Shown: positions 8,308-37,645 of the stretch, in pieces | Position numbering within the stretch: the stretch's first letter is position 1 | Layout of the letters: the number at the start of each line of letters is the position of its first letter | DNA from: Octopus vulgaris | Lineage: Eukaryota | Length of the DNA stretch: 64,000 bases | Direction: 5' to 3' | Assembly (NCBI GenBank): GCA_951406725.2 | Contig: OX597817.1 | Span: 92,752,001-92,816,000, forward strand | Program-made: the position numbers and the translations under genes | The notes under the pieces: model-generated | What the model saw: the letters and a program-made list of their open reading frames with translations, nothing else | The model's database searches: none | Told to the model about the DNA's origin: nothing

Positions 8308-8341
8308 ATTGCATTGGGACTCCTTTCATCGAAAACCGGTG

Positions 8342-11300
8342 TTTTGACTCGTCTAGGGACCCCTCTTTCATCTGCGTATTGAGAAGTTAGCTGCCTATTT
8401 TGTTGAGTGAGTTCGTTTTTTGTTCGTCGTTGTTTGTGTTTGCTCGTGAATTGAACAGTTGTCCGTTGTGTGACAGTAACAAAGAGAAAAAAATAATGGA
8501 CGTGAAGAACGAAATAGTAGAGAAGTGCTTGTCCCCGGTGTGGAGCAAAATTCGCTACGTCGGTCGAGGTGCCCGCAGCGCTACCGTTGAAGTACATTTC
8601 GACTCGGCTGATGTGGCAAGAGTGATTTCATCGATGACCTTAAAAAGTGAGGACATCATGTTACTACCTACCTATATGGGCAAAAGAACTGCGAAACTAT
8701 ATGTGGAAGACATACCAAGAGGATATGATATAATGTGAGTAGCAGCGGCGGTTCTGCACGACGTAGAGCAGAAAGTCTCAATTCTGCAGATAAAAAGGAA
8801 AGAGAAGGTAAACTGGAAGGGACAAGCGCTCGAACTCCTCGTTCAAGCAGAAAATAATGTGCTAGAAAACTTACCCGATAGGGTATTTATTGAGGAGGGA
8901 ATTACAATGAGAGTGTCAGTGGAGGGGCGCAGACCTAGGTGTTTCAAATGTGGTGAAAAAGGTCACGTCCACTCGAACTGCATAAAAAAAAAGAAAAACA
9001 GCGAAGCCCCTCCTCAAAGTGCTTCAAACACAGAAAAAGAAAAGGCGGAAAAAGACCCCAAGACTGCGACAAGGAAGGGAATCGAAACGGTAGATAAAAA
9101 TGAACAAATGGAATTTACACAGGTGACACGCAAAAGAAAAAAAGAAAATACCCTGGACTCTCCTCCCCAAACAAAGAAAAAATCAGCAAACACCGCAGAG
9201 ATACATACAAAACAAATTCTTCAGCCCTACCCCCACGGCACTGTATTCATTGGAACACAGTTCGCCAAGCCCCTCCCCATAAAACAAGATTGGAAAAAAT
9301 TGATTTAAAAAAATGAAAAGAGTGTAGCATTCGACGAGAGGAACGATAGAGTGTTTAAGTATTTAAAATTTTCAAAACTGAAATTATTCAGTAAGTCTGC
9401 AGACTTACTCGTTTTGCAAAAATAAAGGAAGACGAGTGGAAGGAAAAAACACTCCAAGAACATTTTAAAAATAACCTTAACGAAATACTGGAGGGCAAAC
9501 TTACTATAACCCCGGCAACCACACCTACCCAGAGCCCGATGGCAACGCCGGTTAAGAGCCCTGCAGCTACGACCACAAGGGAGGAAGAAGGGGAAGCATG
9601 CAGATTTAAACTGTCATGCTCCCTGTCCCAACCGTAAGTTTTTTTTTTCTCTCTCTCCGACAATGGCAAAGCTGGGTTGTGTGAATGTGCGTAGAATGGG
9701 GTCGAAATGGAAACAAATTTGTCTCCTGAACGACCTCACGACACACGGAGTGGACGTAGCTATTGTAACCGAGTCCAAGATGAACGGGACCCAAGCGTTC
9801 ATCTAAATGGTTTCGAGAAATTTATTTCTCCTAGCCGAGGAGGAGGAAGGGGCGTGGCAGTCCTTATCAGGAAGAGCTTGGATTGCAGGTAAGTACTGTC
9901 TTTCTGGACCCAGAAGGCAGGCTGGTCGTTCTGGATGTGACCCACGTAAGTAAACAGTCCTTCAGGTTGGTAGCTGTCTACGCTCCAAATGAGTGTAGGC
10001 AGTCGGGTTTTTCTCAGAATCTGGAGCACTTTTTAATGACGTCGAAAACGGTAGTCTTAGTAGGGGACTTTAACATTGTCCTCGAAGCGCGCGTCGACAG
10101 TGTTGGCTCAACCAATAGGAAGGGGAACCCTAGCCTCAAGGGTCTACTAGAGAGCTTTAATCTAGTAGACCGTTATCGACTGGATGAGCCGAGCGTTCCA
10201 CAGTGGACGTGGAGTAACAACTACGGCTCACGCAGATCGTATATAGATAGGATATTCGTTAGGAAAAGAGATAAGGATACGTTTAGTTGTCCACAGTTTC
10301 ACATTGTGCCTTACACGGATCACAAATTTGTGACTTGTAGGGTGCAATTAGATAAATGCCATAGACAGGGACCCGGGTACTGGAAGCTGAACAAGTCTAT
10401 TTTGAATTGTGAAGACTTCCGTACCCGGATTAAGGTGTTAGTACAGAGGGCATTATGTGGCACCATCATTAACAATAGATGGTGGCACTCCCTCAAAAGA
10501 GCCATTCGTTCAGAGTCCATCAGATTTAGCAATCAGCTAAGGTTAGATAGGTCTAGGATAGAGGACGATTTAGTTAAGAATCTAAACGAGGCAATGGAAT
10601 CTGGCTCTGCATCCGGAGTGATGGCTGCAAGGACGGTATTGTACCGTCACCTTAACTCCAAACACGAAGGTTGCAGAGTTAGATCTAAGCTACGCGCAGG
10701 GAAACGAGAAGGTATTAACGTTGCCAGATGGGCCTGTCGAGTGGAGAGTCAGAGAGGTAACAAAGCTTCAATCAAGTCTTTAACTGACGAACAGGGACAC
10801 AAGATCTATGGACAGGAGGAGATGCAAAAGTTTCTTCACCAGCATTTCGCCCGCATGTTCGGGTGGAGGGTCGCTGGAGCGGGGGAGGGCCTTAAAGGAC
10901 TTCCTAGCCGGCGGACCGCGGCTCTCAGGGCGTGAGGTGGAGTGCTGTGAAGGAGCGATCACTCCCGCGGAGATAGATGGGTTACTGGCCGGATGCGCCG
11001 GGGAGAAGTCGCCGGGGTTGGATAGTCTGACCTACGAGTTTTATCAAAGTATGCCGGACTTGTTCGGGGGAATACTGGCAGGCGTCTACGCGAACTGGCA
11101 GCAGAACGGGAGAATTCCCACTTCTGTAAGCCGGGGAGTGGTGACGCTAATCCAGAAAGACCCGAGCAAGGGGGATAACATTAGTAATTACAGGCCCATA
11201 ACTCTACTTAATGTAGAGTTAAAGATTTTGGCCAAGGTGTTGGCAAAAAGGTTGACGACTGTCGTGGAGAAACTTGCAGGGAAAGCACAGACATGTGCAA

Positions 11301-13271
11301 TTCCAGGCAGGTCGATCCAGGACAATCTTCACCTTATACGCTACACCTTAGATAGGGTGGGTAAATTAACCGGCATTTAGACCAAAGTAAAGCGTTCGAT
11401 TGGGTAGACCATAAGTACCTGTCGACGGGCCTCGAAGCGGCTGGACTGGGCCCTGAATTTCGCGGGTGGATCTCCGCTATGTATAGCGGCATCACGTCCA
11501 CCGTCCAGATAAACGGTTACCTAACGGAACCGTTTACGATTGAATGTTCAGTTCGTCAAGGGTGCCCCTTGTCACCACTTTTGTACGTGTTGGCTCTCGA
11601 GCCAATGCTGCGAAAGATGGAGAGGCTGGGAAGTAACCCGGATGAGATCGGAGGCGGGAGGACGGTTTCTGCTTATGCGGATGACGTCACCCTCATCGTG
11701 TCCAATGAGGCTCAGCTACCTTGTGTAGAAGATGCTATCAGAGGATACGAGGCGGTGGCAGGAGCAAAAGATAACAAGGACAAGTCGATTGGCTTACGCC
11801 TCGGCACCTGGATGAGCAAGTCGATATCGTCCAGTGCCGTGGGACACTGGACAGATTGTCCTGTTAAGTTGCTATGAGTTTGGTTGGGGCCGGACTCCCA
11901 AACGGAGAGGAATTGGAGTGAGGTGACGGACAAGGTGGAGGCCATAGTACGGACCTGGTCCGGAAAGTTTCTGTCCTTGAAAGGAAGGACGGAGGTGGTA
12001 CAGATGTTCATTGCATCTGTAATCACTTACCGCCTGACCGTTGTCCCTTGCCCGATTCATGGCTTAGCAAATTGGAGTGAATCCTTTTCCGCTTTTTGTG
12101 GAAGGGAGGAAAGCCACTTGTAAGGCGCTCCGTTTGCTGCCAGGAACCGTTAAAGGGTGGGTTAGGAATGCCTTGGTTGATGATGCGCAGACATGCGCTG
12201 AGGCTGAAGCATCTCTGGCACCACCTGGAGGGTGTTAAGGTGTGGAGTCCGCTGGCAGGGGAATTTTTCCCGAGACCGGCTTCCTTAGTGAATTTTAAAC
12301 CCTGTTGCATCAAAAGACGGTATCTGACTTTATGGCAAAAGGAGTGCAAACAGGCACTCACGCTGATCCACAAGGCGGGCAAGGCCGGCTGCGGAAATAC
12401 CACCTCGGTATTTTATAGCAGGCTGGTAGAGGCAAAGAACGACGTCGTCCTTGGAGGGGCTATTGGGTTTGACGAGGACCAGCTTACCAACCTGTTTAAA
12501 AAGACTTTCAGGACGGGGTATTTGGATAATTACCAAAGATCCCTGGCCTGGCAGTGTTATAGGAATGCTTTACCTGTTCGCGAGAAGTTATCGCGGCACG
12601 GAATTTCAGTGTCACCGACGTGTCCAAGATGCGGGTTGGAAGATGAAACCGTCCAGCACGCTTTTGTACACTGTCGGCAGTTGTCAGACTTGATAAGTTA
12701 CGCAGAACACGTGTTATCGCATCTGGGACGAGTACAGCTGTCGGCTGAGTCTATGATTAAGATGATACCGCCAATTGGACTCTCGAAGGAAGGTGAGGCA
12801 TGTTTTCACTGCACGGTTGCAGTAGTAAAAGAATGCATGTGGCGTACAAGAATGGAAGGAGTCGCAATAGGATCCTTTGTCTCAGGCCCCGGCTTGCTCA
12901 CTTACTTCAGATATCATCTGAAGAGCAAAATAGGGCTGGAAAAGAAGACCTTACCACGAGGTGTGTATGAAAAAAGATGGAAGGAAGTGACGAAAAAGGT
13001 GGGTGTCAGAAACCCAGTTTAACTATGGATGGAGAAGAGGAAAGGAAAGCTGCGGGGCCTTATAGGTTGCCGGGGTTTAAAATATATCGGTAAGATTTCA
13101 ATCTAATGTAATGTTATATTAGTCAATGCAAAGGACAATTTAAATACAGTTTTTTGTATAATGAATAATCCATATATTGTGGAAATTTTAAAACGAACCA
13201 CTTAACTGTTTTGTATGTATGTCCTGTATTGTTCTTCTATGTACTGATTTTATAATCGTAATAAAGAATTA
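8342..13271 (+). mobile_element. Tx1-clade LINE A (near full-length, disrupted ORF1 and APE-RT ORF2)
   Basis: ORF1 has an RRM-like region and CCHC (CFKCGEKGHVHSNC). ORF2 runs ~9663-13022 with APE (GDFN, IDR, TDH), RT (QGCPLSP, YADD) and a C-terminal CPRC..ETVQH knuckle. TSD ATCGAAAAC(C/T)GGTG at 8328-8341 and 13272-13285. Confidence 0.93.
9663..13022 (+). pseudogene. ORF2 of Tx1 LINE A (APE endonuclease, RT, Zn knuckle), several frameshifts and stops
   Basis: ORF fragments 9883-10935, 10808-11380, 11479-11877 and 12096-13022. Confidence 0.9.
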
Positions 13272-13285
13272 ATCGAAAACTGGTG

Positions 13286-16200
13286 TTTTTTTAATTTTTC
13301 CTCGGAGTATATCAAATATTTTTCTGTTGCTGCAAATCGTTGTGTGACTTCGTTTCCGTTTGTCTGCTTTGTTGTGTTACACGTAATATAATTGTTGAAT
13401 TGTTTTTGACCCAGTAATTTTCGCCCTTCGGGGTAGAAATTTTCTGTGTGTTTATTTTTTGTGTGAACTCTTAACCTGTATAGGTTATTTTTGAAAAAAA
13501 TTCTCTTGTCATTTGTGACAAGTTTGTGTTGTCTAATATGGAATTAGACTTAAGTTCGTGAGGGCGCGTGGCTTAGTGGTTAGGGCATTCGGCTCATGAT
13601 CGTAAGGTTGTGAGTTCGATTCCCGGCGACGCGTTGTGTCCTTGAGCAAGACACTTTATTTCACGTTGCTCCAGTCCACTCAGCTGGCAAAAATGAGTTG
13701 TACTTGTATTTCAAAGGGTCAGCCTTGTCACTCTCTGTGTCACGCTGATTATCCCCGAGAACTACGTTAAGGGTACACGTGTCTGTGGAATGCTCAGCCA
13801 TTTGCACGTTAATTTCACGAGCAAGCTGTTCCGTTGATCGTATCAGCTGGGACCCTCGTCGTCGTAACCGGCGGAGTCAAAGAAGACTTAAGTTCAAAAA
13901 AAGACTTTCCCGAGATGGGAGAAGGTATAACAACTGTTAAACAAAAGGAAACACAGGCAAAACCCAGTTTTTCAGAAGCCGTAGGTGGCGAAGTGGAAGA
14001 AATGGAGGTGTCAATGACTATTCAAGTTCAGACCGCTTGTGCAAAAAAGTGAAGAAACACGATTGGTACCGCCCCCTGAAACTTTACAGGCAATAAGGGA
14101 AAAAATGGTCACCTACAAGGTGTACAATATGACCGACGTAAAAAACGAAATGGTCGAAAAGTGTATGGCACCAATATGGAGTAAAGTTCGTCATGTCAAC
14201 CGAGGTGCAAGAAGCGCTACAGTGGAGGCGCATTTTGAGACGGCGGAAGAAGCAAGGCAAATTTCGACGCAAACGTTGAAAAACGAGAATATAATACTGC
14301 TACCCTTATATTTAGGGTGCAGAACAGCAAAAGTGACCCTAGAAGATATACCAAGGGGCTACGACGTGATGTGGGCGGCAACAGCGGTCATTTTTGATGT
14401 TGAATCAAAATTGACAATTTTGAGTATGAAGAGGAAAATTGCAAAACACTGGAGAGACCAGCAGCTGGAGATGATTATCCAGGTGGAAAATGCGACGCTG
14501 GAAAGCCTACCAGACAGAGTCTTCGTGGGGAGGGGCACTCCATACGAGTTTCGGTGGAAGGACGCAGGCCCAGATGTTTTAAGTGCGGACAAAAGGGCCA
14601 CGTTCGCTCCGTTTGCACAAAGAAAAATAATACGGGCAACGCACCCCCACACAAAACGCTGTGAAGAACGCAGAAAGCAGCAAAGTGGTGAACAAAGTAA
14701 CGACTGGCGAAAGCAAGGAGGAAAAAAAATAGGTCGAACTCCAAAAAGGAGGAAGACAAGAACGAAATGCAAAATGAGAAAGGAAAGGAGGAGGAAATTA
14801 ATACAACAAAAACAAATATAGAAGAAGAGATGGAATTCACGAACGTGTCGAACAAAAGGAAAAAATCCATCACCCCAGACTCCCCACCCGTAACAAAAAA
14901 AAACAACGCAGACGAACAAATTAAAAATATTCTCCAATCCCACCCCGGCGGTACTACATTTATAGGCCAGCACTTTAACAAACCCCAGCCCCCAACTGTA
15001 AAAGGGTTTAAGCCCAATGAAAAAATTATAGGATACACCACAAGGAACGAGAGAGCAGTAAAATTTGTGCAAGCAAGTACGCAGATCAGGTGCTACAAAG
15101 TGACCGAGAAGGAAGCGGAGTGGCGATATGCAAGGGTCGGCGAAAAAAGATGGAAAGGAAAAAACTTACAAGACCTCGTAAAAGCCGGCTTCATTAAGGA
15201 TGTCACCCAGGAGGTGACAACTGGGAAATTATACGTCAGCCCGGCAGCCACACCAACCCAGAGCCCGGTGGCAACGCCGGTGAAACGCCCAGCAGCAACG
15301 GCGAGTGTGTGGGAGACAGGCAGAAGGAATCTGTCAGGCTCCCTCTCGCAACCGTGAGTAAATAATTATCTTTTTTTTCGATGATTAAGTTAGGTTTATA
15401 AATATGCGTGGAATGGAATCGAAATGGAAACAGGCTTGTTTTCGGGACGACCTCATTTCACATAGAATCGATGTAGCTATTATTACCGAGTCCAAGATGA
15501 AAGGACCCCAAGCGTTCTCACCACTTGGACTTACAGGTAAGTACTGTCTTTCTGGACCCAGAAGGTAGGTTGGTTGTCCTAGATGTGACGCACGTGAGTA
15601 AGCAGTCCTTCAGGTTGGTGGCTGTCTACGCTCCTAATGGACGTGGGCAGACCGGTTTTTTTCGGGAACTGGAGCACTTTCAAGTGACGTCGAAAACGGT
15701 AGTCTTGGTAGGGGATTTCAACACCATTCTCGATGCGCGGGTGGATGGTGTAGGCTCGAGCGATAGGAAGGGGAATCCTGGCCTCAAGGCTCTACTAGCG
15801 AGCTTTAATCTAGTAGACCGTTTTCGACTGGATGAGACGAACGTTCCACAGTGGACGTGGAGTAATATCGACGGCTCACGCAGATCGTACATAATTAGAG
15901 TATTTGTTAAGGAACGAGATAGGAATAGTGTTAGCTGTCCACAATTCGCTGTTGTGCCTTACACGGATCACAAACTTGTGACGTGTGAGGTACAGGTAGA
16001 TAAATGCCATAGACAAGGTCCCGGGTACTGGAAAATGAACAAGTCTATTTTGACTTGTGAAGCTTTCCGTACCCGGATTAAGAAATTAGTACAGAGGGCA
16101 TTATGTGGCACCATCATTAATAATAGATGGTGGCTCGCCCTCAAAAGAGCCATCCGTTTGGAGTCCATTAGATTTAGCAAGCAGCTAAGTTTAGATAGGA

Positions 16201-19020
16201 CTAGAATAGGGGGCGAATTAGTTAAGAACTTAGACGAGGCTATGGAATCTGGCTGTGCATCCGGAGTGTTGGCAGCGAGAGCGGTATTGTACCATCATCT
16301 CAACGCCAAGCACGAGGGGTGTAGAGTCAGCTAAGTTACGTGCAGGAAAACGAGAAGGTATTAACGTTGCCGGATGGGCCCGTCGTGAGGAGAGTCAGAA
16401 GGGCAAAAAGTCCTGTATTATGTCCTTAACTGACGAGCAGGACCGCAAGATCTATGGACAGGAGGAGATGCAGAAGGTCCTTCACCAGCATTTCGCACGG
16501 CTGTTTGGGGGCGGTGGTCCGCTCGAGCGTGGGGAGACCTTAAAGGACTTCCTAGCTGGTGAGCCTCGATTCTCGGCAGGTGAGGCGGAGTGCTGTCAAG
16601 GATCGATCTCTCCCGCGGAGGTAAGAGGGGTTATGGCCGAGTGCGCCGGGGAAAAGTTGCCGGGGTTGGATGGTCTGCCCTATGAATTTTATTGTTGTAT
16701 GCCGGACTTTTTCGGAGACATACTGGCAAGCGTCTATGCAAACTGGCAACAGAATGGGAGGATTCCCAGCTCTGTGAGTCGGGGAGTTGTGACGCTTGTC
16801 CAGAAAGCAAGGGGGACAGTATTAGTAATTATAGGCCCATAACTCTACTTAATGTAGAGTTTAAGATTTTGGCCAAGGTGTTAGTAAAAAGGCTGACGGC
16901 TGTCGTGGAGAAACTTGTCGGGAAGGCACAGACATGTGCAATCCCAGGCAGGTCGATCCAGGATAATCTTCATCTTCTTCGCTACACTATAGATAGGGTC
17001 GGGAAATTAGACGGCAAAGGAGGGGCATTGGTCCATTTAGACCAAAGTAAAGCGTTTGATAGGGTAGACCATCGGTACTTGGCGGCGGGTCCTCGAAGCG
17101 GCTGAGCTGGGCCCTGGCTTCTGCGGGTGGATCTCAGCTATGTACAGCGGCATCAAGTCCACAGTCCAGATAAACGGTTACCTAACGGAGCCGTTTTCGA
17201 TCAAGCGTTCAGTTCGTCAAGGGTGCCCCTTGTCCCCGCTCCTGTATGTTTTGGCTCTTGAGCCATTGCTGCGGAAGCTGGAGAAGTTAGGAGGCAACCC
17301 TAATGAAATCGGATGCGGTAAGCCTGTTTCTGCCTATGCGGATGACGTCACCCTCATCGTGTCCAACGGAACACAGCTACCTCGGGTAGCAGGTGTTCTC
17401 CATGGATACGAAGCGGTGGCAGGGGCAAAAGTTAACAGGGACAAGTCCATCGGTTTGCGCCTCGGCACCTGGAGGAACAAGCCGATACCGTCCAGTGTTG
17501 TTGGACACTGGACGGATGGTCCTGTTAAATTGCTCGGAGTCTGGTTTGATCCAGACTCCCAGACGGAGAAGAATTGGAGCGAGGTAACGAGCAAGGTGGA
17601 TGCCATAGTACGGAAGTGGTCCGGAAGGCATCTTTCCTTGAAAGGGAGGGCGGAGGTGGCACAGATGTTTATAGCCTCTGTCGTCACCTACCGCCTGACC
17701 GTCGTGCCTTGCCCCGATTCGTGGTTAAACAAGTTGGAACGACTCCTTTTTCGCTTTTTGTGGAAAGGAGGAAAGCCGCTTGTGAGATGCTCCGTGTGTT
17801 GCCAGGAACCGCTAAAGGGTGGACTGGGGATGCCTTGGCTAATGATGCGCAAGCATGCGTTGAGGCTGAGACACCTCTGGTGTTACCTGGAGGATGATAA
17901 GGTGTGGAGTTCGCTGGCAGAGGAATTCTTCCCGCGACCGGCCTCTATGGAGGGATTTACACCCGGTCTCATTAAAGGACGTAACCTGACTTTATGGCAG
18001 AAGGAGTGCCGACAGGCACTCTGGCTGATCCACAAGATGGGCAAGGCCGGCAGCGGGAATACCACCTCGGTGTTCTATAAAGGGCTGGTAGAGGGGAAAA
18101 TGATGACGTCCTAGGAAGGGCTCTGGGGTTCGATGAGGATCAACTCTCCAACCTGTTTAAGAAGACTTTCAGGTCGGGGTATTTGGATAATTACCAAAAA
18201 TCCCTGACCTGGCAGTGCTATAGGAATGCATTACCTGTTCGCGAGAAGTTATCCAGGCACGGAATGTCAGTGCCACCGACGTGTCCAAGATGTGGGTTGG
18301 ACGATGAAACCGTTCAACACGCTTTTGTACAATGTCGGGAGCTGTCAGGCTTGATAAGTTACGTGGAACACGTGTTGTCGCATCTGGGACGAGTACAGCT
18401 GTCGGCTGAGTCTATGATTAAGATGATACCGCCAACTGGACTCTCAAAGGAAGGTAAGGCCTGTTTTTACTGTACGGTGGCAGTATTGAAAGAGTGTGTA
18501 TGGAGAACTAGATTGAAAGGTCTTGTGAAAGGGTCCTTTATCTCTGGCCCCGGTTTGTTAAAATACTTCGAATATCATCTGAAGAGCAAGATGGGGTTGG
18601 AGAAGAGGAGCCTGCCACAGAAAGAGTATATGGAACGTTGGAAGGATGTGATGAGAAAGGTGGGTGAGAGTAACCCAGCTTAATCATCGAGGAAAGGAAA
18701 AATCAGCTGCTGGGATTTATAGGCTGCCGGGTTCAAAATTGAAACTGGTACCTCCCATTCCCTTTCCCTGTACATAACTGTTTAAAATAAAGAAATAATA
18801 AAAAAAAACATACGCAGTAAAAGTTCTCGTGATAAAGGCAAAAGTAAGCCATGGTTTCGTTTCAAGGCAAAGCAAGCCAAGTTTTCGTTCAATTTACATA
18901 AAATTTTATTTTTGTAATTTTTATAATTTCATTCGAACTCGCATAGCATTTTTGTAATTGTTTTGTCCTGTAATGTACCCATTCTATGTCAGATCACTTG
19001 ATCATAATAAAGATAAACTC
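13286..19020 (+). mobile_element. Tx1-clade LINE B (full-length, disrupted), related to A
   Basis: ORF1 starts at ATG 13538 (MELDLSSKKDFPEM after removing the SINE) and ends 15357. ORF2 runs ~15381-18683. TSD at 13272-13285 and 19021-19034. Confidence 0.93.
13558..13883 (+). mobile_element. tRNA-derived SINE inserted in ORF1 of LINE B
   Basis: A box TGGCTTAGTGG and B box GAGTTCGATTCC. 12-bp TSD AGACTTAAGTTC at 13546-13557 and 13884-13895. Confidence 0.9.
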
Positions 19021-19030
19021 ATCGAAAACC

Positions 19031-19091
19031 GGTGATTGTCGTGCGCTGATGACGGGTCAATACCCAGAAACTGCAGTCCGTGCGCATCACT
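19031..19091 (+). ncRNA. Type I hammerhead ribozyme (minimal, palindromic stem III)
   Basis: CGTGCG-CTGATGA-CGGGTCAATACCCA-GAAAC-TGCA-GTC-CGTGCG. Distal stem I is GGTGAT/ATCACT. Predicted cleavage after C19078. Confidence 0.8.
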
Positions 19092-19440
19092 TAGGTTGAC
19101 GAGGGAAGGTTGACCTCCCTTTGCAAATACCAATAGGGCACAGAAAGTGTGCCTATAGCTAGCTGGAGGAGATGTTCTCCTACAAGCTACAGTAACACCC
19201 CATCCTTAGTGGTTAGCCATATTGAGATGGCAAATATACCTCATATATATATATATATATACAAGCATTAAAGACCCGTCGTTGCCGAGTCATAGTGCTA
19301 GTGCATGTATATATGTGTATATATATGTGTACATATTACATGTACATCTATATATATACATCTACACATAAAATGCAAAATTCAAAGTTATATCTTGATA
19401 TCGCTAGTGATTACAATACTCAAAATATATAACAGACTGG

Positions 19441-22400
19441 AATTGTTTTATTATTACCCACAAGGGGCGAACATAGAGGGGACAATACAACCTGATGTGA
19501 AGTCAGATATATGAATGGGTTTACACAAAAGGCGAATTTAAAAATTTACAAAAATTACAAAAATAGAAAAAATCGAATGGGGAACAGACCGGAAGACATT
19601 ACGGATGGAGTGGGAGCAGGTTCAGCTCGGACCCCACGAGCCCCGCCTCCCCACTGATACTTTGGTTTCGTCTAGTTTTACATTTATGTGGTATCATCCA
19701 CTCGCAACTTTCGTGCTACATCTTTCAATCGTTCTTCGTACACTCTCTTAGTCAGGCATTTTCTCCAGCCCTATCTTCCTTTTCAGGTGAAAGATGAAGT
19801 AATTCATCAAACCAGGGCCGGAGATGAACTTGCCTGACCGTAAACCTTTCATTCTCGTCTTCCATATCACCTCTTTCGAAATTGCTACTACAACGAGAAA
19901 ACAATTCTTACCTTCTTTCGCGAGGAAATCTGGTGGGTCAATTTCTGTAATAGACTCAGTCGACTGCTGTACTCTTCGTGTGCTTGACAACAGCTGTTCG
20001 GCATAAACCCACACCTCAGACACGACCGAACAATGAACAATAGCGTGCGGGACGGTTTCCCTATCCCGCTCGCATCTTGGACATATCGGACTGTCTTGGC
20101 CACCGTGCCTTGCGAGTTTATCCCGAACAGGTACAGCTCCTCTGTAGCATTGCCATGCCAGAGACTTCTGGAAGTTGTCCAGTGTCTTCGGCTCGAACGT
20201 ACGTCGGAACAGACTGGTCAGCTGATTATCGTCGAGACCTAGGGTTTCCCCCAAGGTATCTTCACATTCCGTCTCTACCAACCCTCTATAGAAGAATGTG
20301 GTGGAACCTCCACCGCAGGCGTTGCCCGAGTGACGGAATAGCAGGGGAGCCTTGCGACACTCCGTGTACCATGTGCCCAGTTTCGATCTACGATTTAGCC
20401 AGTTTTCCCATCCACCGAAACTAGTGAACTTGGTAAACATCAGTTTTGCTAGCGGAGACCACACCCGTTCACCATCCAGGTAGAGCCACAGATGTCTTAA
20501 CCTCAGCGCATGTCTGCGCATCATCAGCCAAGGCATCCCTAGCCCACCCTTTAACGGTTGTTGACAGCAAGTAGAGCGTTTCTCAAGTGGTTTCCTGCCA
20601 TTCCACAAGACGTAGAAGAGCAGTCTTTCCAACTTGATCAACCACGAATCAGGGCAAGGAACGACGGAAAGGCGGTAGGTGATAACCGATGCGATGAACA
20701 CATTGGCTACCTCCGCCCTCCCTTTCAGGGATAGCCACCGCCAACACCAGGTCTTGGTTACTGCAGCCACCCTGCTCGATACCTCGCCCCAATTCTTCTC
20801 TATTTGGAGGTCTGGACCGAACCAAACCCCTAGCAACTTAATCGGACCCTCCGTCCAACGTCCCACGACGCTGTCAGGAGGCATCGACTTGCCTCTCCAG
20901 GTGCCGAGTTGCAAGCCGACTGACTTTTCACGATTAACTTTTGCTCCTGTCACTGTCTCGTAAACCTCTATGGCCTTGCCTACCCTCTGTAGGTGATCCA
21001 TTTCGGTTACGATGATGGTGATGTCATCCGCGTACGCTGACACCGATTTTCCACTACCTGGCTGTCTCGGGATACCGCTCAGTTTTCGCAGTAATGGCTC
21101 AAGAGCCACCTCGTACAAAGCGGGGAGAGCGGACACCCTTGACGAACCGAGCGCTTGATGTTGAACGGCTTCTTGTCGAAGCCGTTCACCCGAACTACCG
21201 AGTCGATGTTGTCGTAAATTTGGATAATCCACCTGAGGAAGCCAAGGCCCAGCCCGAACTGTGCCAGGGCAGATACCAGGTAGCGATGGTCGACCCTATC
21301 GAATGCTTTAGATTGGTCTAAATGGACCAGTGCCCCACACTTGCTAGAATCACTATTAAACCCCTCTATAGTGTACCGAATAAGATGGAGATTATCCTGA
21401 ATGGTTCAGCCGGGAACGGCACATGTCTGTGCCTCCCCGATCAGTCCATCCGCGACACGCGCCAATCTTTTCGATAACACTTTGGCCAAAATCTTCAACT
21501 CTGTGTTTAGCAGAGTGATGGGCCTGAAATTATCAATGCACTCCCCCTTGCTCGGGTCCTTTCTGACGGGTGTCACTACTCCACGGCGCACAGATCTGGG
21601 TATGAACCCGTTCTGCTGCCAGATCGCATAGGTGCCCGAACAAGTCTGGCATACTCTTATATAACTCATAGGGTAGACCATCTAAACCCGGCGCCTTGCC
21701 CGCGCCGCAGTCCGCCATCGCCTCAACCACCTCCCCAGGCGTGATTGGCCCTTCACAGCCCTCCGCATCTCGCCCCGATAAGCGCGGCAGCCCGTCGAGG
21801 AGGTCCGTAAAGGCCCTCCTCCTATCCAGTCCTCCGCCCTCACCGAAAAGCTGAGCGAAGTGCTTCTGAAAGGCCTCACACATCTCCTCGGGCTTGTTTA
21901 TCAACTCATCTTGTTGGTTCGTCATAGATCGAATCGTGGCGTCGTTACCACGCTGAGCTTCCACCACTCGGGCCCATCTCACGGCGTTGATTCCTTCACA
22001 ACCCATTGCGCGGATCCTAGCCCTGATAATGCAGCCCATGTGTTTGGCCTCGAGGTGCTGGTTTAACGCCAGTCTCTTGGCCGTCACCTGAGCCACAGAG
22101 CCAGTTTTCAAGGTTTCCTCTAATTCCTTAACTAGAGTAGATTCCCTCCTAGCCTCTCTAGCCACTAATCCTATGCTATATTTAATAGACTCGAATTTGA
22201 TGGCTCGCTTGAGGGCATACCACCATTTGTTATTAATGATGGCACCAGATAGCGCCCTCTGAATTATAGTCCTAATCCGGTCTCTGTACTCCTTAATCGC
22301 CAAAAGGGACGTATTAAGTTTCCAATAACCGGAGCCTCTATTTTTAACCTTATCTATGTCAAGCTTACAGGTGACCATTTTATGATCACTGTAGCTGACC

Positions 22401-24522
22401 AGGTAAAACTGTGGACACTTAGCTATTTTTCTGTCTACTTTTCTAATTAGTATCCTATCTATGTATGACCTGGAAGATCCGTCGCTGTTTGACCATGTCC
22501 ACAATGGAGCGTTCGGAAATTCCAACCTATAAGGATCTGCTAGCTCAAAGCGGCTTAGCAGTTCCAGGAAGCCAATGTTACCTTTTCTATCTGGACGCAA
22601 GCCAACACAATCTACATCCGCTTTGCAAATTGTGTTAAAGTCTCCTAGCACAACTAATGAATGCGAAGTACCAAGAAAGTTTTCCAGTTCTCGAAAATAA
22701 TCACTTTGCCCTGTATGGTTGGGTGCGTAAATTGCAACCAGTCTGATAACTTTACAGTTACTGAATGTCAAATCCATGACGACCAGCCTACCTTCTGGGT
22801 CTGAAAAAATTAACCTTTTCTCAAAAACCCGGTTTCTTTTTAATAGGACCAACACTCCACCCCCGCCGGTAGGACTGGCCGGAGAGAAAAAACTCTCGTA
22901 GCCGTCAAACAGCGGGAGTAGACCTCTTGGCCCCTCTAAGCGGGTTTCTGTAGCAACAATAACATCCAAATTACGCGACCTGATATCATTAAGGAAGCGA
23001 CCTTGCTTCCGGCTTGATCCCAGGCCCCGCACATTTAAACAGCCAACATAAATGCAATCCATGACTTACCTTATATCAGTGGTTCGACTTGTTTTTCTTC
23101 TTCTTCTTCACTTTTATTTTTTTCCCGGGCTCGTGGGGGAGTCCGACGCAGGCCCTCGTATATATGGAGATATGTCCATTCTCAGAGGGCCCACGTCGTT
23201 AAAGAATTCGGATTTTATCCGTCCGTAATCCTTCCGGCCTATTCTATAAACAATACAGTCTTTTGTTTTTTTTTATTTTTTCCACCTTGGCCATGGCTGC
23301 CAAAACGTTAATTAGCCTGTTGTTGGCTGCCTTAATGGCCATAAATGTATTCGTCGCTTCTTTTCTCTTTTTTTGTCTCTCTTTCTGAGGGGTGGTTTCT
23401 GTTTTCCGTTTTTCTTTTTGTGATTTTTGACCACCCCTCCTCTTTTTCCTTTTCTTCGCCGCTTGTTGTTTCTGTTGCTTCTTTGGTTTCTGTTGATTCT
23501 TTATTTTCTGGTGTTTTCTCTTTTATTTTTTATTTTTCTGGCGGTGCTGCTTCCTGCGGTCTAGGTTGGCACTCCGCTCTCACGTGTCCCTTTTTACCGC
23601 AGCCGAAGCACCTCGGCTTTCTGCCCTCCACAAACACTATCACCATCTCCTCCTCGCTGATCCTCAATGTCTCTGGAATTTCTTCCAATGTCTGTACTTC
23701 CGTCTGTATCACTATTGAAATGCGTTGGCCTTGCCAATGCCCCTCCTCCTCTACTGTAGCCTGGAGGATATTGATTTTGTCCTCCAGGCCTAACATGACT
23801 GCCGCCACCAGGCATGTGGCGTCTGCCTCTGGGGGAATGTTTCTTATTTTGATTTTCGAGGTCCTTCTGCCTCTGTACAGGGGGAGGTGGACCATATTAT
23901 CGGCTTTTAGTGGTTCAGTTGATAGCTTTTCAGGTATCTCCTTCTGTCCTGAACCTCACCTTTACCGTTCCAAATTTTCTTCCACGATTTATATAAGTGA
24001 TTTCCTGCCATATTGTCTTTAGGCAACTCTCAATTTTCTTTTCTTCCACTCTTTGAATGGACTTCGTTGTTGAGTTGTACGTTTTATAAATAATCCTTCT
24101 TTTTTCCACTTCCTCTATCTTACTGACGTCCGGTGTTACTGATACTTCTGTACCTTCCTTTTTCAGACATGCCGTATATTTTTCCAGGTTGCTTCTTTCC
24201 GTATTAATTGTCTTCAGTTTCTTGCCCGCAACTTCAGAAAACTTCTTAGCTGGGGCTTCTTCTGCTTTCGGCGACACCGCCGGTGAGCTTTCTTCACCTG
24301 ACACAGGTGAATAGGAGATGAATAGATTTTTAAATGTGTTCCACACTAAATGTTCCACAGTAATTCCGCCCCGGGGGGGGGAGGGGAATTAAATACGTAG
24401 CCTTCGCGTGAAGGCTAATGACAGTCTTATACAGAAGACACTATATATCAATCAAAGTAACAGTAATTAAATTAACAAACCGGTATCAACAAAGTAGCAG
24501 CAAATGACAAAACAGACTGGCG
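19441..24522 (-). mobile_element. Tx1-clade LINE C (full-length autonomous type, disrupted)
   Basis: ORF1 ~24358-23070 (CFGCGKKGHVRAEC) and ORF2 23062-19748 (APE, RT YADD, CPRC knuckle). 13-bp TSD TATAACAGACTGG at 19428-19440 and 24523-24535. Confidence 0.93.
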
Positions 24523-24535
24523 TATAACAGACTGG

Positions 24536-26303
24536 AATGATTTTATTACTGTCCACAAGGGGCGAACATAAAGGGGACAATACAATAGGCGAACTTAAAA
24601 TCAGAAAGCGAATAAGAAAAGGAAAAAATAAAAGTAATAATGACATATGAAAGAATATTTACAATGAGATGTAAATGTCCACTCGATCTCCGGAATCAAG
24701 AGGTTACATTTTCGTCAGTTTTATCACAAATATTTCACCAAATTTTTTCTTTTTTTTTTCCTCTCACAATTTTACACATATTCTATGATTTTTTCTACTT
24801 CTCTGAAGTCCATCACTGAATCCTCAGGCAGCCGCTCTCTCACTCGAACCTTCGTGTAAAATATTACATTTTCCCCGGCAGCTCTGAAGAACTCGGCGAC
24901 TACTTCCTCGGGGATTAGGGCAGTCTCCTGCCACCGGTCGGTCATCCTGTTGATCCATACATGTCCCTCCGTTTTACTTGTTATGTCATTCATTACAGGG
25001 CAGAAATGGTAGGTTACTAACTTGTAGTAATAGTAATCTTGTTTCCGTCCTGCGTTTTCCTTCATCTTACTTTTCGGGCTTATTTCTTCCTTGTTCTCCT
25101 CTCTTTGTTTCTCTCTTTCTCTCTTTTTACCTTCTTTTCTTTCTCCTTCCTTCTCTTGTCTTTTTGGCTCTTTGTCTGTTTTCTCTCTTGTTTTATGTTC
25201 CTTTCCTGTATTTTCTTTTACCTTTTGTGTACCGTCCTTTCTTTTCGTTTGATTCTGATCCCTCTCTTGTTTTTTTCCTATTGTTTCTTTTTCCTTTTTT
25301 TTCCTGACTCTGTTTTCGTTCTATTTCTTTCTTTTCTTTTATTTCTTTTTCTTTCATTGACTTCTTATTTCCTTTCTCTTGTTGTTTTGTTTCCTTTTCT
25401 ATGCTTTCTTTCTCATTTACACTATTCTTCTTTTCTTCAAGTTCCTGCTCGCACTCCGCTACGAATTCATATAACGGGCACTGTTTTTTAATGTGCCCCC
25501 TTGTCCCACACAAGTAACAGTTTGGTTTTCTCCCCTCTACAATTACGCTGAGGGTTTTTTCCTCTTCAATTTCAATTCTGTAGGGAAACCTTTCAATATC
25601 CTCTTTTGTGGCCATCAGCCACAATTCTACCCCATATGCTCTCCAGTTTACCGCGTTGGACTCCTTAATTGATTCCACCTCCACTTCCTCTTCTGCTGCT
25701 CCTAGAATAGCTGTTGCCAGCCATTCTGTTTTCACTTCTGGGGGTATATTCGGGATTTTAACACGGACCCCTCTTCTTCCCTTGTATGAGGGCCACATTG
25801 TGAATTTTTGGGCTCTTAGTACGGTGGTAGCCAGTGAGGCCGCAATTTCCTCCGTTGCACATCTCACCTCCACCGTACCAAATTTCTTGCTTCTACTCAC
25901 GTAAGTTATTTTCCCCATTATGTCTCCCAGACATTTCTCAATTTCATCTATCTCCACTCTTGCCAGTTTCTTCGTATTCTTGTCTTGGGTTTTATATGTC
26001 ACCGTCTTGCTTTCTTTATCCTCTTTTGATTTCGCGGGGGGGATTAGCTTCACGCTATCACCCTCCATTTTGAAAAGCTTTTCATATTCTTTGAGTTTCT
26101 CCTTCTCAAGGAACACCTCCCTTACAATTAGCGACGAATCGCTATTTTTCCGGTGAACCCCGCGTAAGTCGCCATGATTAGAGGGTCAATTCACCTTCTT
26201 CGGAAGGTTTCCACACGTAGATGCAAACGCCTCACTCGATATCAAATCAAGTTACAAAGAAAAATTCACCGTCTTGTCACAACTAACAACACACACTCAA
26301 TGA
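24536..26303 (-). mobile_element. ORF1-only (HAL1-like) non-autonomous Tx1 element D
   Basis: ORF1 26175-24772 with frameshifts (RRM-like, CYLCGTRGHIKKQC, K/E linker, C-terminal domain). No ORF2. 3' terminus shared with LINE C. Confidence 0.85.
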
Positions 26304-26310
26304 AGGCTGG

Positions 26311-28294
26311 AATGCTTTTATTACTACCCACAGGTGCGAACATAGAGGGGACAGTACAATCGGGAAAAAAAATTAAATAATGAGATATGAAGTATGTGTA
26401 AATGTGGTGCAATGCCCCACCCGATCCCCGAAATCAGGTGGTTACATTTCGTCATTTTTAATTACATTTTACAATATTTTCAAAAATAACTAAGTACATT
26501 TTACAGCATTTCGCAATACATTCGACCGCAATACATTTCATAAGAGAATTTCCAAAATACATTATCAATTGAATATTTTACAGAAAAATTATTTTCCACA
26601 AATTCATATATAAAGCTTTCATAATACATTTTCAAGATTTCAAAATTCATTTGAAATTAACAAATGTCTTTTCTAATTCTTTTTTTTTCCTATAATTTTA
26701 AATCAGTTCCATTACCTTTGACAGGTCGTTGTAATTTTCCATCTCTCGTGGGTATCTTAGCAGTCGGCACTTCGCATGTCTTATTACGTTCATACCGGCG
26801 GCCTCGATAAACGCATCGGCGCTGTCTTCCTGGACCAGTGCACCCGTTTCCCTCCACTCCGTGCCCATCCTGACCCATGAATATCCCTCCGTTTCACTTA
26901 TTAATTCCTCCATCTCCCCACAGTGTCTGTAATGAACCAATGTTCCATAAAATTTATACCTTCTATTTGAACCTATGTTTTCTTTAGTTTTCCTCTTCGG
27001 ACTTACTTCTTCTTTACCTTCCTCTCTCGGTTTTTCTCTTTCTCTCTTTTTGCTTTCCTTTTCTTTTTCCTTCTCTTGTCTTTTTGGCTCTTTCTCTGTC
27101 GTATGTTCTTTTCCTGTTTTTTCTTTTTCTTTTTGTGTAACATCCTTTCCTTTCTCTTGATTCTGTTCCTTTTCTTGTTTTTTCCTGTTTTTTCTCTTTC
27201 CTTTATTTTACTTTCTTTTTCTTTCTCTTGATTTTGTTTTGGTTCTTTCTCTATTTCTCTATTACTTCTCTACCCTGTGACTTTTGTTCTTTTTCTATTA
27301 ATTTCTTCCCTTTGCTTTCATTTTCCTTCCGTGTGTTGTTTTTTCCTTTTACCGTTGATTCTTTTTCCTTGCTTTCTTTCTCCTTTAGAATATTGTTCCC
27401 TTCTTCGGGTTCTTTTTCCTTCTCTTTTTTGTTTTCCTCTGCTCTTTCACACTCCGCCATAAATTCGTATAGCGGACATTCTTTTTTATGTGTCCTCTTA
27501 TTCCACACCCGTAGCAGTTAGGTTTCCTCCCCTCCACAATTACGCTGAGGGTTTTTCCATCTTCTACTTCTATTTGGAAGGGAACCCGTTCTATATCTTT
27601 GTTTGTGGCTATCAGCCAGATCTCTACCCCGTATCCCTTCCATTTCACTATGTTGGTCTCCTTTATCGACCCAGTTTCTATCTCTTCCTCTGCTGACCCT
27701 AGGATGGCTGTTATCAGCCATTCTGTCTTCAATTCTGGGGGTATATTTGGGATTTTGACCCTTATCCCTCTTCTCCCTTTGTAAGTAGGCCACATGATGA
27801 AGTTTTCGGCTCTGAGTACGGTGGAAGCTAGCAAGGCCGCAACTTCTTTTGTTGCGCACCTCACCTCCACCGTACCATATTTCTTGCCTCTGCACACAAA
27901 GGTCGCCTTCTTCATTACGTCGTCCAGACATTTTTCGATCTCTTCTATTGCTATTCTTGATAGCTTTCTTGTGATCTTGTCTTGTGTTCTATAAATTATT
28001 GTCTTGTCTTCTTTTTCCTCCTTTGCTTCAGCAGGGGGGACCAGCCTCACGCTGTCACCCTCCCTTTCAACGAATTTCCCAAAATCTTTTAGCTGTTCTT
28101 TTTTAAAGAACACTTCTCTTACTGTCAGCGACGTATCGCTTTTCATTGCGGCGACACCCGCGTACGTCTCCATGACTTGAGGGTCGGCGCACCTTCTACA
28201 AAAAGGTTCTAACGCGCAGCGGCAAACGCCTCGCGCGATTCAATTTTCAATTTCTATACACAAAAAATTACTAACTACTTAACGCAATCAATGA
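26311..28294 (-). mobile_element. ORF1-only non-autonomous Tx1 element E (second family)
   Basis: ORF1 28173-26698 (METYAGV..., CYGCGIRGHIKKEC). Same 3' terminal motif. No APE or RT. Confidence 0.85.
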
Positions 28295-28301
28295 AGACTG
28301 G

Positions 28302-30542
28302 AATGATTTTATTATTACCCACAAGGGCGAACATAAAGGGGACAATACAATCGGGGAACTTAAAATAAAAAAGCGAATAAGAAAATGAAAATATAAAAGT
28401 AATAATCACATATGAAAGAATATTTACAATGAGATGTAAATGTCCACTCGATCCCCGGAATCAAGAGGTTACATTTTCGTCAGTTTTATCACAAATATTT
28501 CACCAAATTTTTTCTTTTTTTTTTTCCTCTCACAATTTTACACATATTCTATGATTTTTTCTACTTCTCTGAAGTCCATCACTGAATCCTTAGGCAGCCG
28601 CTCTCTCGCTCGAACCTTCGTGTAAAATATTACATTTTCCCCGGCAGCTCTGAAGAACTCGGCGACTACTTTCTCGGGGATTAGGGCAGTATCCTGCCAC
28701 CGGTCGGTCATCCTGTTGACCCATACATGTCCCTCCGTTTTACTTGTTATGTCATTCATTACAGGGCCGAAATGGTAAGTTACTAACTTATAGTAATAGT
28801 ATTCTTGTTTCCGTCCTGCGTTTTCCTTCATCTTCCTTTTCGGGCTTACTTCTTCCTTGTTCTCCTCTCTTTGTTTCTCTCTTTCTCTCTTTTTGCCTTC
28901 TTTTCTTTCTCCTTGGCTCTTTGTCTGTTTCTTATCTTGCTTTGTGTTCCTTTCTTGTATTTTCTTTTTCCTTTTGTGTGCCGTCCTTTCTTTTCGTTTG
29001 ATTCTGATCCCTCTCTTGTTTTTTTCCTATTGTTTCTTTTTCCTTTTTTTTTTCCTGACTCTGTTTTGGTCCAATTTCTTTTATTTCTTTTTCCTTCATT
29101 GACTTCTAATTTCCTTTCTCTTGTTGTTTTGTTTCCTTTTCTATGCTTTCTTTCTCATTTACAGTATTCTTCTTTTGTGGCCATCAGCCACAATTCTACC
29201 CCATATCCTCTCCAATTTACCCCGTTGGACTCCTTAATTGATTCCATCTCCACTTCCTCTTCTGCTGCTCCTAGAATAGCTGTTGCCAGCCATTCTGTTT
29301 TCACTTCTGGGGGTATATTCGGGATTTTAACCTGGACCCCTCTTCTTCCCTTGTATGAAGGCCACATTGTGAATTTTTGGGCTCTTAGTACGGTGGTAGC
29401 CAGTGAGGCCGCAATTTCCTCCGTTGCACATCTCACCTCCACCGTACCAAATTTCTTGCCTCTACTCACGTAGGTTATTTTCCCCATTATGTCTCCCAGA
29501 CATTTCTCAATTTCGTCTATCTCCACTCTTGCCAGTTTCTTCGTATTTTGTCTTGGGTTTTATATGTCACCGTCTTGCTTTCTTTATCCTCTTTTGCTTT
29601 CGCGGAGGGGATTAGCTTCACGCTATCACCCTCCATTTTGAAAAGCTTTTCATATTCTTTGAGTTTCTCCTCCTCAAAGAACACCTCCCTTACAATTAGC
29701 GACGAATCGTTATTTTTCTCGGTGACCCCCGCGTAAGTCGCCATGATTAGTGGGTCAATTCACCTTCTTCGGAAGGTTTCCACACATGGAGGCAAACGCC
29801 TCGCGCGATATCAAATCAATTTACACAGAAAAATTCACCGTCTTGTCACAACTAACAACACACACTATTTCTTTATTACCCACTAGGGGCGACGAAGAGG
29901 GGACATTACAAGACATGGGGACATAGAACATTATAATTAAATTTATGAAGGATGATTTGTTACATGAAAGAATGATAATATGAAAGCGATGCTAAAGGCC
30001 CCATCCGTTAGCATCACTTACCTGTCCTTTGGTTTTCACCGTCACTTGAATGTTCTTTCCCAATACGAAGACCATCCATATCCATTCTTACTCCGAAATA
30101 CTCCTCCATATTTTCCACGAATTCATCGCTCATTCTTATATCTTTCACCTCCCAATTCTCCCTTTCACACCTCACCATAAATTCATCTATTCTCTTCTTT
30201 TCAATCACAGCATACCTAGTCTCACCAACTTCATACCATTTATACTTTTCCATTAGCCTTTTAACTTCTTTCTGTTCTGTCATAGTACAAATGTTCAGCC
30301 TGGGCTCGATTTCAATCTCTTGTCTGTCTGTATTATTTTTTTCTTTTGTTTTCTTGTTGGAAGGGAGCGGGTGGGTTCACTGTCTGCAGGGATAGGGTGG
30401 GTCTCAGAGGGTGTGGGTGGTGTTGGGGTGGATTGGTGTTCTGTTATTTTCTTTTCCTCGTATTCTTCTCTTCCTCTTATTCACAGCTTCTTTCCATTCC
30501 TGTGAATTCTCTTCTACTGAACTAACAACACACACTCAATGA
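28302..30542 (-). mobile_element. ORF1-only Tx1 element F (same family as D, Zn knuckle deleted, G nested in its 5' end)
   Basis: Near-identical to D. ORF1 29744-28538 with an internal deletion at ~29170. Confidence 0.85.
29867..30519 (-). mobile_element. 5'-truncated ORF1-only-type element G nested in F
   Basis: 17-bp TSD AACTAACAACACACACT at 29850-29866 and 30520-30536. The C-terminal ORF 30283-30014 is followed directly by the shared 3' motif. Confidence 0.75.
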
Positions 30543-30859
30543 AGACTGGCATTGGCAGCTCTTCTTTTTTCTCTACATTGTATACTTTATAGACAATAGT
30601 CTTTTCTTTTCTTTTATTTTTTATTATCCATCTGGACTATTCCGTTTCTGCACGCTAATTATATTTTTAATTTATTCCCATTCATTTGAAACCACTTATT
30701 CAAGTTCAAATCATTGATGCAATTTTATACCAATTGTTATTTTTAATTTTGTATGTTACGATTATATTATACTTTAGTTTGATTTTAATTATTACTTACA
30801 ACATATAATTCAATTGTTATTATTATTTTTATTGTTAAAGTGAAAGCATCTGACATAAA

Positions 30860-31645: not shown

Positions 31646-32324
31646 TTTCAGTCATTTGATTGTGGCCATGCTAGTGCACAGCCTTTAGTCGAGCAAATCG
31701 ACCCCAGGAGTTATTCTTTGTAAGTCTAGTACTTATTCTATCGGTCAAGTGGGGGTTGTTGTCTGTGGCTTTATTTTTTACAAACAGGGAATCTTCACTG
31801 GATTCAGGATGTTGGTCGGCGTGCGGTGCATCAATATTTTTCACATTAAGTGAAAATTGTTTCTCATTGTGAGAAGTACAGTTTGGGGACGTATCCTTCA
31901 ACCAAAAGTTGTTCACTTTTTAATAGTGTGTGTTTTTACAACAACATTTACTATTTATTGGAAAGCTGTATTTCAAGTGTTCACATGAAGTGAAATTTTT
32001 TTCTCATTGTGAGAACTATAGTTTGGTAACGTATCTTAACCACCAAAAGTTGTCTGCTGTTTGTAAATAGAGTATATTTTTAAAAGTACGTTTACCAATA
32101 ATTGGAAAGCTGTATTTCAAGTGGAGCAGTCCAGGTTCTAATCGGAGCATCATAGGGCTTGGAGTACCTGAATGCCCAGAAGCTTTTTTGCTGTGTTTTG
32201 TTGAACTGTTGTTTTCTTCTTCTATTGGGACTTTCTTATTGAACTGTTTGCTTTTTCTCTTCTTCCCTTTTATTTCCTTTTGATTTCTCTCTTTTCTTTG
32301 AGGGTAAAGAAATTTTGTTTCTTC
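31646..32324 (-). repeat. ~680-bp composite segment with an inverted copy at 57595-58258
   Basis: Near-identical sequence. The same 81-aa spurious ORF (MNNFWLKDTSP...) appears at 31671-31916(-) and 57988-58233(+). Ends in a SINE tail. Confidence 0.9.
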
Positions 32325-35949: not shown

Positions 35950-36290
35950 TGGAACTCCGTCGGTTACGACGTCGAGGGTTCCAGTTGATCCTAGTAACAT
36001 AACAGCCTCCTCGTGAAATTAACATGCAAGTGGGTGAGCACTTCACACAGACGTGTGGCCTCAACGTAGTTCTCGGGAAGATTCAGCGTGACACAGAGTG
36101 TGATAAAGCTGGCCCTTTGAAATACAGGTAAAACAGAAACAAGAAGGAAGTGTGTGAGAAAGTTGTGGTGAAAGAGTACGGAACGTCGTGGAGCTTTAGC
36201 TGTTTTCGCTCAACAAACACGCACAACGCCTGGAATCGAAATCGCGATTCTACGACCACGAGTCCGCTGTCGTATCCACAGGGCCATTGC
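35950..36290 (-). mobile_element. tRNA-derived SINE related to 13558-13883
   Basis: Shares the 3' tail (CCCTCGACGTCGTAACCGACGGAG) and has a degenerate A/B-box head. Confidence 0.75.
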
Positions 36291-37520: not shown

Positions 37521-37645
37521 CCACTAAGCCACGCGTTTCCAACTACTATCAAATACTGTCTACAAAATATTTCTGTATATATGCTACGATTTCTTTGAAC
37601 TTATAAAAAGTTATGATTTCTTATGAAATATAAACAACTATCTTA

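Follow-up and report, generated by a model that had tools for sequence, protein, structure and literature searches.

A Directional Array of L1/Tx1-Type Retrotransposons and Their ORF1-Only Relatives Built by Successive Insertion in Octopus vulgaris

Introduction

Directional arrays of elements that insert into or next to their own kind are known from HeT-A/TART/TAHRE and from Zepp of Chlorella, which forms nested clusters; they occupy telomeric or subtelomeric positions and combine autonomous members with members carrying only open reading frame 1 (ORF1) or Gag. The stretch analyzed here, 64,000 nucleotides of the Octopus vulgaris genome (contig OX597817.1, positions 92,752,001 to 92,816,000; hereafter the window), holds an array of ~11 kb composed of five retrotransposons of the L1/Tx1 type, designated C, D, E, F, and G. 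Unlike the telomeric arrays, it is flanked by ordinary DNA, has duplications, and its relatives are found on many chromosome-sized contigs.

Among the closest described systems is R1 of Drosophila, for which Stage and Eickbush (2009, PMC2718515) describe tandems that arise when a copy enters the duplication at a resident R1's 5′ end, as well as ISR junctions originating from target sequence that the RNA carries at its 5′ end. The octopus array likewise consists of stacked APE-type elements without long terminal repeats (non-LTR) that entered the duplication at a resident 5′ end, and the 5′ end of C, with a duplication, extra bases, and a second target copy, resembles the ISR junctions. Target sequence on both RNA ends, giving precise junctions by annealing, is a feature of melanogaster-type R1 (PMC2718515) and is proposed for the octopus elements below. 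In contrast to R1, which targets 28S rDNA and has upstream target sequence as its tag, the octopus array had no Rfam match, the repeated bases are those following the nick, and several families use one site.

In the Tx1 clade, copies of SINEU-3 mobilized by Tx1 lie in tandem around a duplication (Kojima 2015, PMC4494074). The octopus array shares with the target-preferring elements of that clade sequential tandem insertion around a duplication and non-autonomous partners and, as with Tx1L in Tx1D, Tx1-Mar, Tx1-9_AMi, and tandem SINEU-3, an apparent preference for landing within other mobile elements. The targets described there are DNA transposons, LTR elements, small-RNA genes, and microsatellites, and a family is considered target-specific when one sequence type occurs in >20% of flanks (PMC4494074); the octopus landing zone, in contrast, seems to be the heads of retrotransposons of the same group, and the partners encode ORF1. 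Tandems of Drosophila P-elements and non-LTR elements form by double insertion (McGurk and Barbash 2018, PMC5932611), with the duplication held in the junction and non-LTR elements inserted repeatedly at one site, as in the octopus; the Drosophila non-LTR tandems mostly join a tail to a 5′-truncated copy of the same family, whereas the octopus heads look complete and the families are mixed. HAL1 (half-L1), described for mammals, is a non-autonomous ORF1-only derivative amplified as such (PMC5753468), from which the octopus elements differ in that they form two or, more probably, three diverged families at the least, with a common tail and without poly(A).

The genome of O. vulgaris contains 80 L1-Tx1 families, 13 of them recently active (PMC13282606), and L1-Tx1 elements are also named in PMC8967140. 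The supplement of the former paper, in which L1-Tx1 appears in tables only, does not contain CCAGTCT, the junction motif described below. Titles and abstract openings in the literature described neither tandem arrays nor a preferred target for octopus L1/Tx1 elements, although Repbase, subscription papers, or bioRxiv supplements may hold such a description.

Results and Discussion

Structure of the Array

The array was assembled by sequential insertion of elements that share a 3′ tail, and clusters of the same families recur in the genome. All five elements lie in one orientation on the minus strand at 19441–30549 of the window, whose DNA is of animal type and rich in microsatellites (Table 1). 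The original prediction of a head-to-tail series agreed with the sequence for C to F; it had overlooked G, which interrupts F and adds a junction lacking the motif.

Table 1. Coordinates of the array, its junctions, and the second array in the window
Feature	Position	Strand	Remarks
Element C	19441..24522	−	Full-length L1/Tx1-type non-LTR retrotransposon: ORF1 (CCHC knuckle) and ORF2 (APE endonuclease, reverse transcriptase, zf-RVT)
APE-type endonuclease domain of C	22300..23062	−	Alignment to L1 endonuclease; NVRG, ATET, IYAP, GDFN, IDR, and SDH motifs in place
Element D	24536..26310	−	ORF1-only, non-autonomous, common tail; zf-CCHC; head CCAGCCT-TCATTGAG, motif at 26304-26310
Element E	26311..28301	−	ORF1-only diverged subfamily; head CCAGTCT-TCATTGATT, motif at 28295-28301
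Element F	28302..30549	−	D-family copy, ORF1-only; head motif at 30543-30549; interrupted by G
Element G	29867..30519	−	Short tail-bearing element: C-terminal ORF piece and diverged tail, placed 13 nt into F head
Common ~50-nt 3′ tail	19441-19490 (C), 24536-24585 (D), 26311-26359 (E), 28302-28350 (F), 29867-29911 (G)	−	AATAAA ends 5–6 nt before the junction; no poly(A)
C 13-bp target-site duplication, downstream copy CCAGTCTGTTATA	19428..19440	−	Start of non-element flank
C 13-bp target-site duplication, upstream copy	24523..24535	−	Exact match; D tail joins here
ISR-like 5′ junction of C: CG and second CCAGTCTGTT	24511..24522	−	Matches both copies of the duplication over 10 nt
G 17-bp duplication, downstream copy AGTGTGTGTTGTTAGTT	29850-29866	−	Upstream copy at 30520-30536
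Second head-to-tail array, L1/Tx1-type A and B	8328..19034	+	ORF matches
Element A	8342-13271	+	L1/Tx1-type
Element B	13286-19020	+	L1/Tx1-type

Both ORFs of C are frameshifted in this copy. Pfam matches were Exo_endo_phos (E 2e-14), RVT_1 (E 9.5e-08), and zf-RVT (E 1e-09), with no RNase H family among the matches of ORF2, and the best solved-structure match was human L1 ORF2p (E 2.2e-22). An ORF2 with an N-terminal APE endonuclease, a reverse transcriptase, and a C-terminal zf-RVT without RNase H, a separate upstream ORF1, and a target-site duplication are the characters of the L1/Tx1 group. The repeat annotation of O. vulgaris lumps 80 families as L1-Tx1; the elements are called L1/Tx1-type here, a designation that does not place them within the Tx1 clade proper. 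One weak match, P0049 (E 3.9e-10), carries the source name "Transposon TX1 uncharacterized 149 kDa protein," and ORF1 of C shares 59–81% identity with the Octopus proteins P0009/P0010.

Each half of F shares 96% identity with D, and the ORF1 of F has an internal deletion of ~173 nt; E and D are 71% identical at the DNA level. Stretches of the D ORF1 recur in O. vulgaris proteins at 91–96% identity, and all 14 relatives of this ORF1 among the matches found belong to Octopus. G family members in O. vulgaris are 81–94% identical. For the C-terminal domain of the D-type ORF1, features gave no usable match, and structure comparison gave weak matches only (TM 0.44–0.51). Pattern scans of metagenome and viral contigs at the DNA level gave no match; at the protein level, 26 pattern matches were obtained in metagenome contigs and none was confirmed.

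Junction Motif and Target-Site Duplications

The sequence AG(A/G)CTGG is found on the plus strand at 19434, 24514, 24529, 26304, 28295, and 30543; for the five junctions that the original prediction had listed (all of these except 24514), both coordinates and motif were borne out. In the sense of the elements, CCAGYCT follows directly 3′ of four of the five tails (C, D, E, and F) and also opens the head of F. The chance of this 7-mer at one given position is ~4e-5 by composition, so its placement at the junctions is not random. Across the window, 22 matches were found against 10.6 ± 3.2 in 100 shuffles, and 16 of the 22 lie away from junctions.

The target-site duplication predicted for C was recovered as two exact copies. 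The D/E, E/F, and F/flank junctions, for which a common sequence had also been claimed, share 14 nt, with E/F and F/flank identical and D/E differing by one mismatch. The four motif-bearing junctions are copies of one site and make up a single, not an independent, piece of evidence for an endonuclease preference. At G, the 3′ junction is without CCAGTCT. Across the two ends of D and F, only 7 nt are held in common; the duplication measures 13 bp in C, 14 bp in both A and B, and 17 bp in G.

It had further been claimed that the first bases of C repeat the target, and 24511–24522 indeed reads CGCCAGTCTGTT in sense. The CG preceding this second motif may be an ancestral CpG form of the TG in the upstream flank; the observed/expected CpG ratio of 0.8–0.95 in elements A to F indicates weak decay.

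Rfam gave no match at gathering score in the window, so small-RNA genes of the kind targeted by Keno, Dewa, and their kin (snRNA, tRNA, 5S) were not found in the flanks. When the array flanks were compared with the rest of the window, the only repeat matched was one of 41 nt in common with the region upstream of A.

A Second Array as an Internal Control

Elements A and B form another head-to-tail array in the window, on the plus strand. A 14-bp site, ATCGAAAAC(C/T)GGTG, is present before A (8328), between A and B (13272), and after B (19021), and all three matches to this 14-mer in the window at ≤2 mismatches fall on these junctions. The A-B site is renewed by plain target-site duplication. 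Together with the published tandems of R1, P-element, and SINEU-3, this array indicates that a 5′ mimic of the target is unnecessary for self-renewing, directional stacking. Repeated insertion, directionality, and renewal, as originally predicted for the minus-strand array, hold, and the 5′ mimic as their requirement does not; target-site duplication ordinarily renews a site by itself.

The 41-nt repeat mentioned above lies on both sides of the A-B array (8164–8204 and 19206–19246), and a hammerhead-core-like sequence, CTGATGA...GAAA, is found at 19046, 25 nt past the right copy of the site. The sequence suggests that A and B target a Penelope-like repeat at its end. A short repeat whose head is tRNA-like, probably a short interspersed element (SINE), lies in the 5′ region of B (13558–13883, plus strand) between copies of a 12-bp duplication (13546–13557 and 13884–13895), with related copies at 35954–36134 and 37399–37535.

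Shared Tail and ORF1-Only Families

In all seven elements, A to G, AATAAA ends 5–9 nt before the junction, and poly(A) is absent. A conserved structure of the common tail is not claimed: the predicted hairpins, of −7 to −8 kcal/mol and obtained without a shuffle control, differ between copies.

No ORF2 lies between ORF1 and the tail in D, E, and F; pieces of the C ORF2 matched only A, B, and C in tblastn. This is the HAL1-like organization, and D-type elements were, moreover, amplified as a unit and not by a one-off deletion: the D 3′ region joined to the tail had depths of 4057, 3665, and 479 in three of four public contig runs, and the D-type proteins of O. vulgaris stop at the same residue. 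These depths are ~54–77 times a one-copy proxy, which was taken from 27 of the 32 listed pieces after five high-depth rows were dropped and which measures depth, not copy number. The summed depth of the tail bin was ~2e5 in run X1, compared with ~74 for long diverged contigs. These data suggest that the families are abundant. At least two, and probably three, diverged ORF1-only families (D, E, and G) are distinguished. D and E work like HAL1, and are not HAL1 proper by their sequence, since a mammalian L1 origin does not apply to them and the ORF1 relatives found are from Octopus. Because the tail is common to all, D, E, and G would be mobilized in trans by the ORF2 of C-type elements.

Splice-donor consensus sequences GTRAGT were found at or adjoining the ORF1 stop of A, B, C, and G (9634 and 15354 on the plus strand; 23069 and 30021 on the minus strand). 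In the window, this consensus occupies 0.06% of positions; D and F have only the weak GTGAGA, and E has none. Splicing from such a donor could be a route to ORF1-only RNAs. Gene models P0062-P0065 and P0094 contain two or three tandem copies of an 89-aa G-type ORF, which suggests that G-only tandem arrays exist. A longer G-type ORF1 was not found among 10 matches.

Contig Joints and Recurrence of Stacking

Contigs of the four public runs were mapped to 19270–28400, the part of the array that holds C, D, and E; of a total of 379 joints, the results cover 15, and of 4603 loose ends, 24. Two joints absent from the window were recovered. In 28295→19436, a C-type tail stands against an E-type head, with one base unaccounted for (three of four runs, one contig each). 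In 26311→19442, a C-type tail is followed by 21 other letters and by a D head with the motif (two of four runs, one contig each); the spacer is about as long as a duplication, and the 3′ junction is without CCAGTCT.

Among 25 accessions of D-type gene models in O. vulgaris, 15 have another D-type model within 2 accession numbers, and 12 have a D-type neighbor of different sequence, against a mean of 0.09 under a uniform null; at most four accessions were considered per sequence, and the clusters were reached partly through D. Four clusters were found (CAI9715245-251, CAI9719596-597, CAI9729052-053, and CAJ1099379-380), and neighbors in the longest differ by ≤8%. Of 52 proteins examined, 25 contain G; six of these continue into a D/E-type ORF1 (five contigs) and five into another G copy. 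A search with G alone gave two of 10 and four of 10, respectively. As judged from these gene models, stacking of the families recurs elsewhere in the O. vulgaris genome.

The annotated proteins of O. vulgaris include D- and G-type pieces, and one such piece is joined to CFAP65 exons. Accessions CAI9729171-174 (P0067, P0079) are G-type and G+D-type gene models among CFAP65-like fragments, and an array may lie inside a CFAP65-like gene.

Formation of the Array

The explanation that we prefer, and to which we give an even chance, combines successive target-primed insertions with a target-derived 5′ tag and a preference for the heads of resident family members, not for a strict CCAGTCT site. The array would have been built by successive target-primed reverse transcription with L1/Tx1-type machinery, autonomous C-type elements providing ORF2 and the ORF1-only elements borrowing it via the common tail. 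Each insertion would duplicate the bases after the nick, so that the newest element always has an intact site at its 5′ junction, where the next would land in the same direction. RNAs of D and E would carry CCAGTCT as a short target-derived 5′ tag, as in melanogaster-type R1, and would probably read through into CCAGTCT at the 3′ end, because AATAAA lies only 6 nt before the junction. Polyadenylation cleavage usually occurs 10–30 nt past AATAAA. Annealing of the 5′ tag to the cut target is proposed as the reason why D and F have only 7 bases in common across their ends; the 5′ junction of C, with its 13-bp duplication, CG, and tag, would be the outcome without annealing. The preferred landing region would be the head of resident family members, with offsets of approximately −20, 0, and +13. 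In favor of this explanation are the contrast between 7 shared bases in D and F and the longer duplications of A, B, C, and G, the A-B array, both contig joints, the position of G in the F head, the clustered D-type and joined G-type gene models of O. vulgaris, the placement of AATAAA without poly(A) in all seven elements, and the precedent of R1. An element-borne 5′ tag, taken by itself, seems slightly more probable than its absence, and one joint (26311→19442, two of four runs, alignment not printed) fits a tag on a full-length copy at a non-target site.

Several observations weigh against this explanation. The 5′ tag depends on one locus and one contig joint, and the match of that joint to the motif through 26304–26311 was read from its start coordinate, not from a printed alignment; the D family might simply make 7-bp duplications. 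The GTT in the extra CCAGTCTGTT of C matches the flank of the locus and not the heads of D, E, and F, so the extra copy may be a local duplication. The common tail is the only link between D, E, and G and the ORF2 that would mobilize them. No loose end fell at tails or heads among the 24 considered. Accession adjacency comes without orientation, distance, or junction sequence and may reflect tandem duplication, isoforms, or assembly error, and the G-first order in the gene models is forced by the predictor, since G ends in a strong splice donor.

One alternative dispenses with the tag: CCAGTCT would be host sequence copied as a duplication of 7, 13, or 14 bp, D, E, and F would start at TCATTGA, and the extra 12 nt of C would be a local duplication or an abortive second insertion. 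We regard this plain re-use of the target site as a real possibility, though rather less probable than not. The A-B array needs nothing more, the R1, P-element, and SINEU-3 tandems are published cases, and the extension of the extra C copy into GTT fits it; but it requires a 7-bp duplication for D and F where four neighbors show 13–17 bp, and it leaves unexplained both the position of G at +13 and the joint in which a motif-bearing D head lies behind unrelated sequence with a tail 21 letters upstream. Under another alternative, the endonuclease would recognize CCAGTCT genome-wide, the 5′ ends would mimic it, and any new copy would seed an array. The motif, or six of its seven bases, after four of the five tails and at the 28295→19436 joint, its presence in the non-element flank at 19434, and the clustering of D-type genes in O. 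vulgaris are all in favor of such strict mimicry. However, these junctions amount to one site and one head, and chance alone would give about 10 copies of the 7-mer in 64 kb; with 16 of the 22 matches off junctions, the 7-mer alone cannot be the address. CCAGTCT is also missing from the two 3′ junctions recovered that are copies neither of the array site nor of a head, those of G and of the 26311→19442 joint, which makes strict targeting doubtful, and we consider it unlikely. The original prediction of CCAGTCT as endonuclease target and 5′ mimic thus survives in so far as the motif may ride on D-type heads, and fails at these two junctions.

The ribonucleoprotein might instead be drawn to RNA polymerase II start sites, or to proteins at family promoters, with insertions scattering around the heads and CCAGTC acting as an initiator. 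YYANWYY is the initiator-type consensus. CCAGTCT fits it, and the offsets around D-type heads agree with such tethering; but the consensus matches 1% of window positions, the only TATA-like word upstream of F begins 42 nt before the junction, which is not the usual distance, and A and B use a different, apparently non-promoter site. We consider tethering quite unlikely. Very improbable is that unequal exchange duplicated the units in tandem, or that the assembly is at fault, in place of repeated insertion. The 96% identity of D and F and the identical proteins at the consecutive accessions CAI9739099-101 could be read in this way; against it, the units belong to different families (C, D, E at 71%, and G), E occurs once only and separates D from F, and a duplication of its own accompanies each of C and G.

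A broader form of the preferred explanation would treat autonomous C-type and ORF1-only D-, E-, and G-type elements as a guild in which the first bases of a full-length copy would be at once the start of transcription, the tag that anneals, and the landing site of choice, each full-length copy seeding a directional, mixed, intrachromosomal array. We put this forward tentatively and think it rather less probable than not; if true, it would amount to HeT-A/TART-like self-stacking without telomeres, with a built-in safe harbor. The stacking principle itself is already known; the octopus array adds a clear further example and perhaps a new class of target. At many loci, the ORF1-only families seem to have landed on one another's heads, and a 5′ tag may have assisted. 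If resident heads are the preferred landing zone, self-stacking would limit damage to host genes, and the arrays would seed satellite-like blocks as well as gene models, whether spurious or real. The apparently intact ORF1 of the ORF1-only families poses the question of what ORF1 gives to a non-autonomous element.

Other Features of the Window

A long exon with about ten cysteine-rich repeats of the pacifastin/VWC type (Pfam Pacifastin_I, E 2.9e-58) was found at 42653–44077 (plus strand). Inverted copies, 74–80% identical, of a decayed element bearing a reverse transcriptase lie at 2434–4188 (plus strand) and 49052–52060 (minus strand); they gave weak RVT_1 matches and look Penelope-like by eye. 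An inverted pair of 680-nt repeats, 94% identical and with an internal tandem duplication of ~140 nt, is located at 31646–32324 and 57595–58258.

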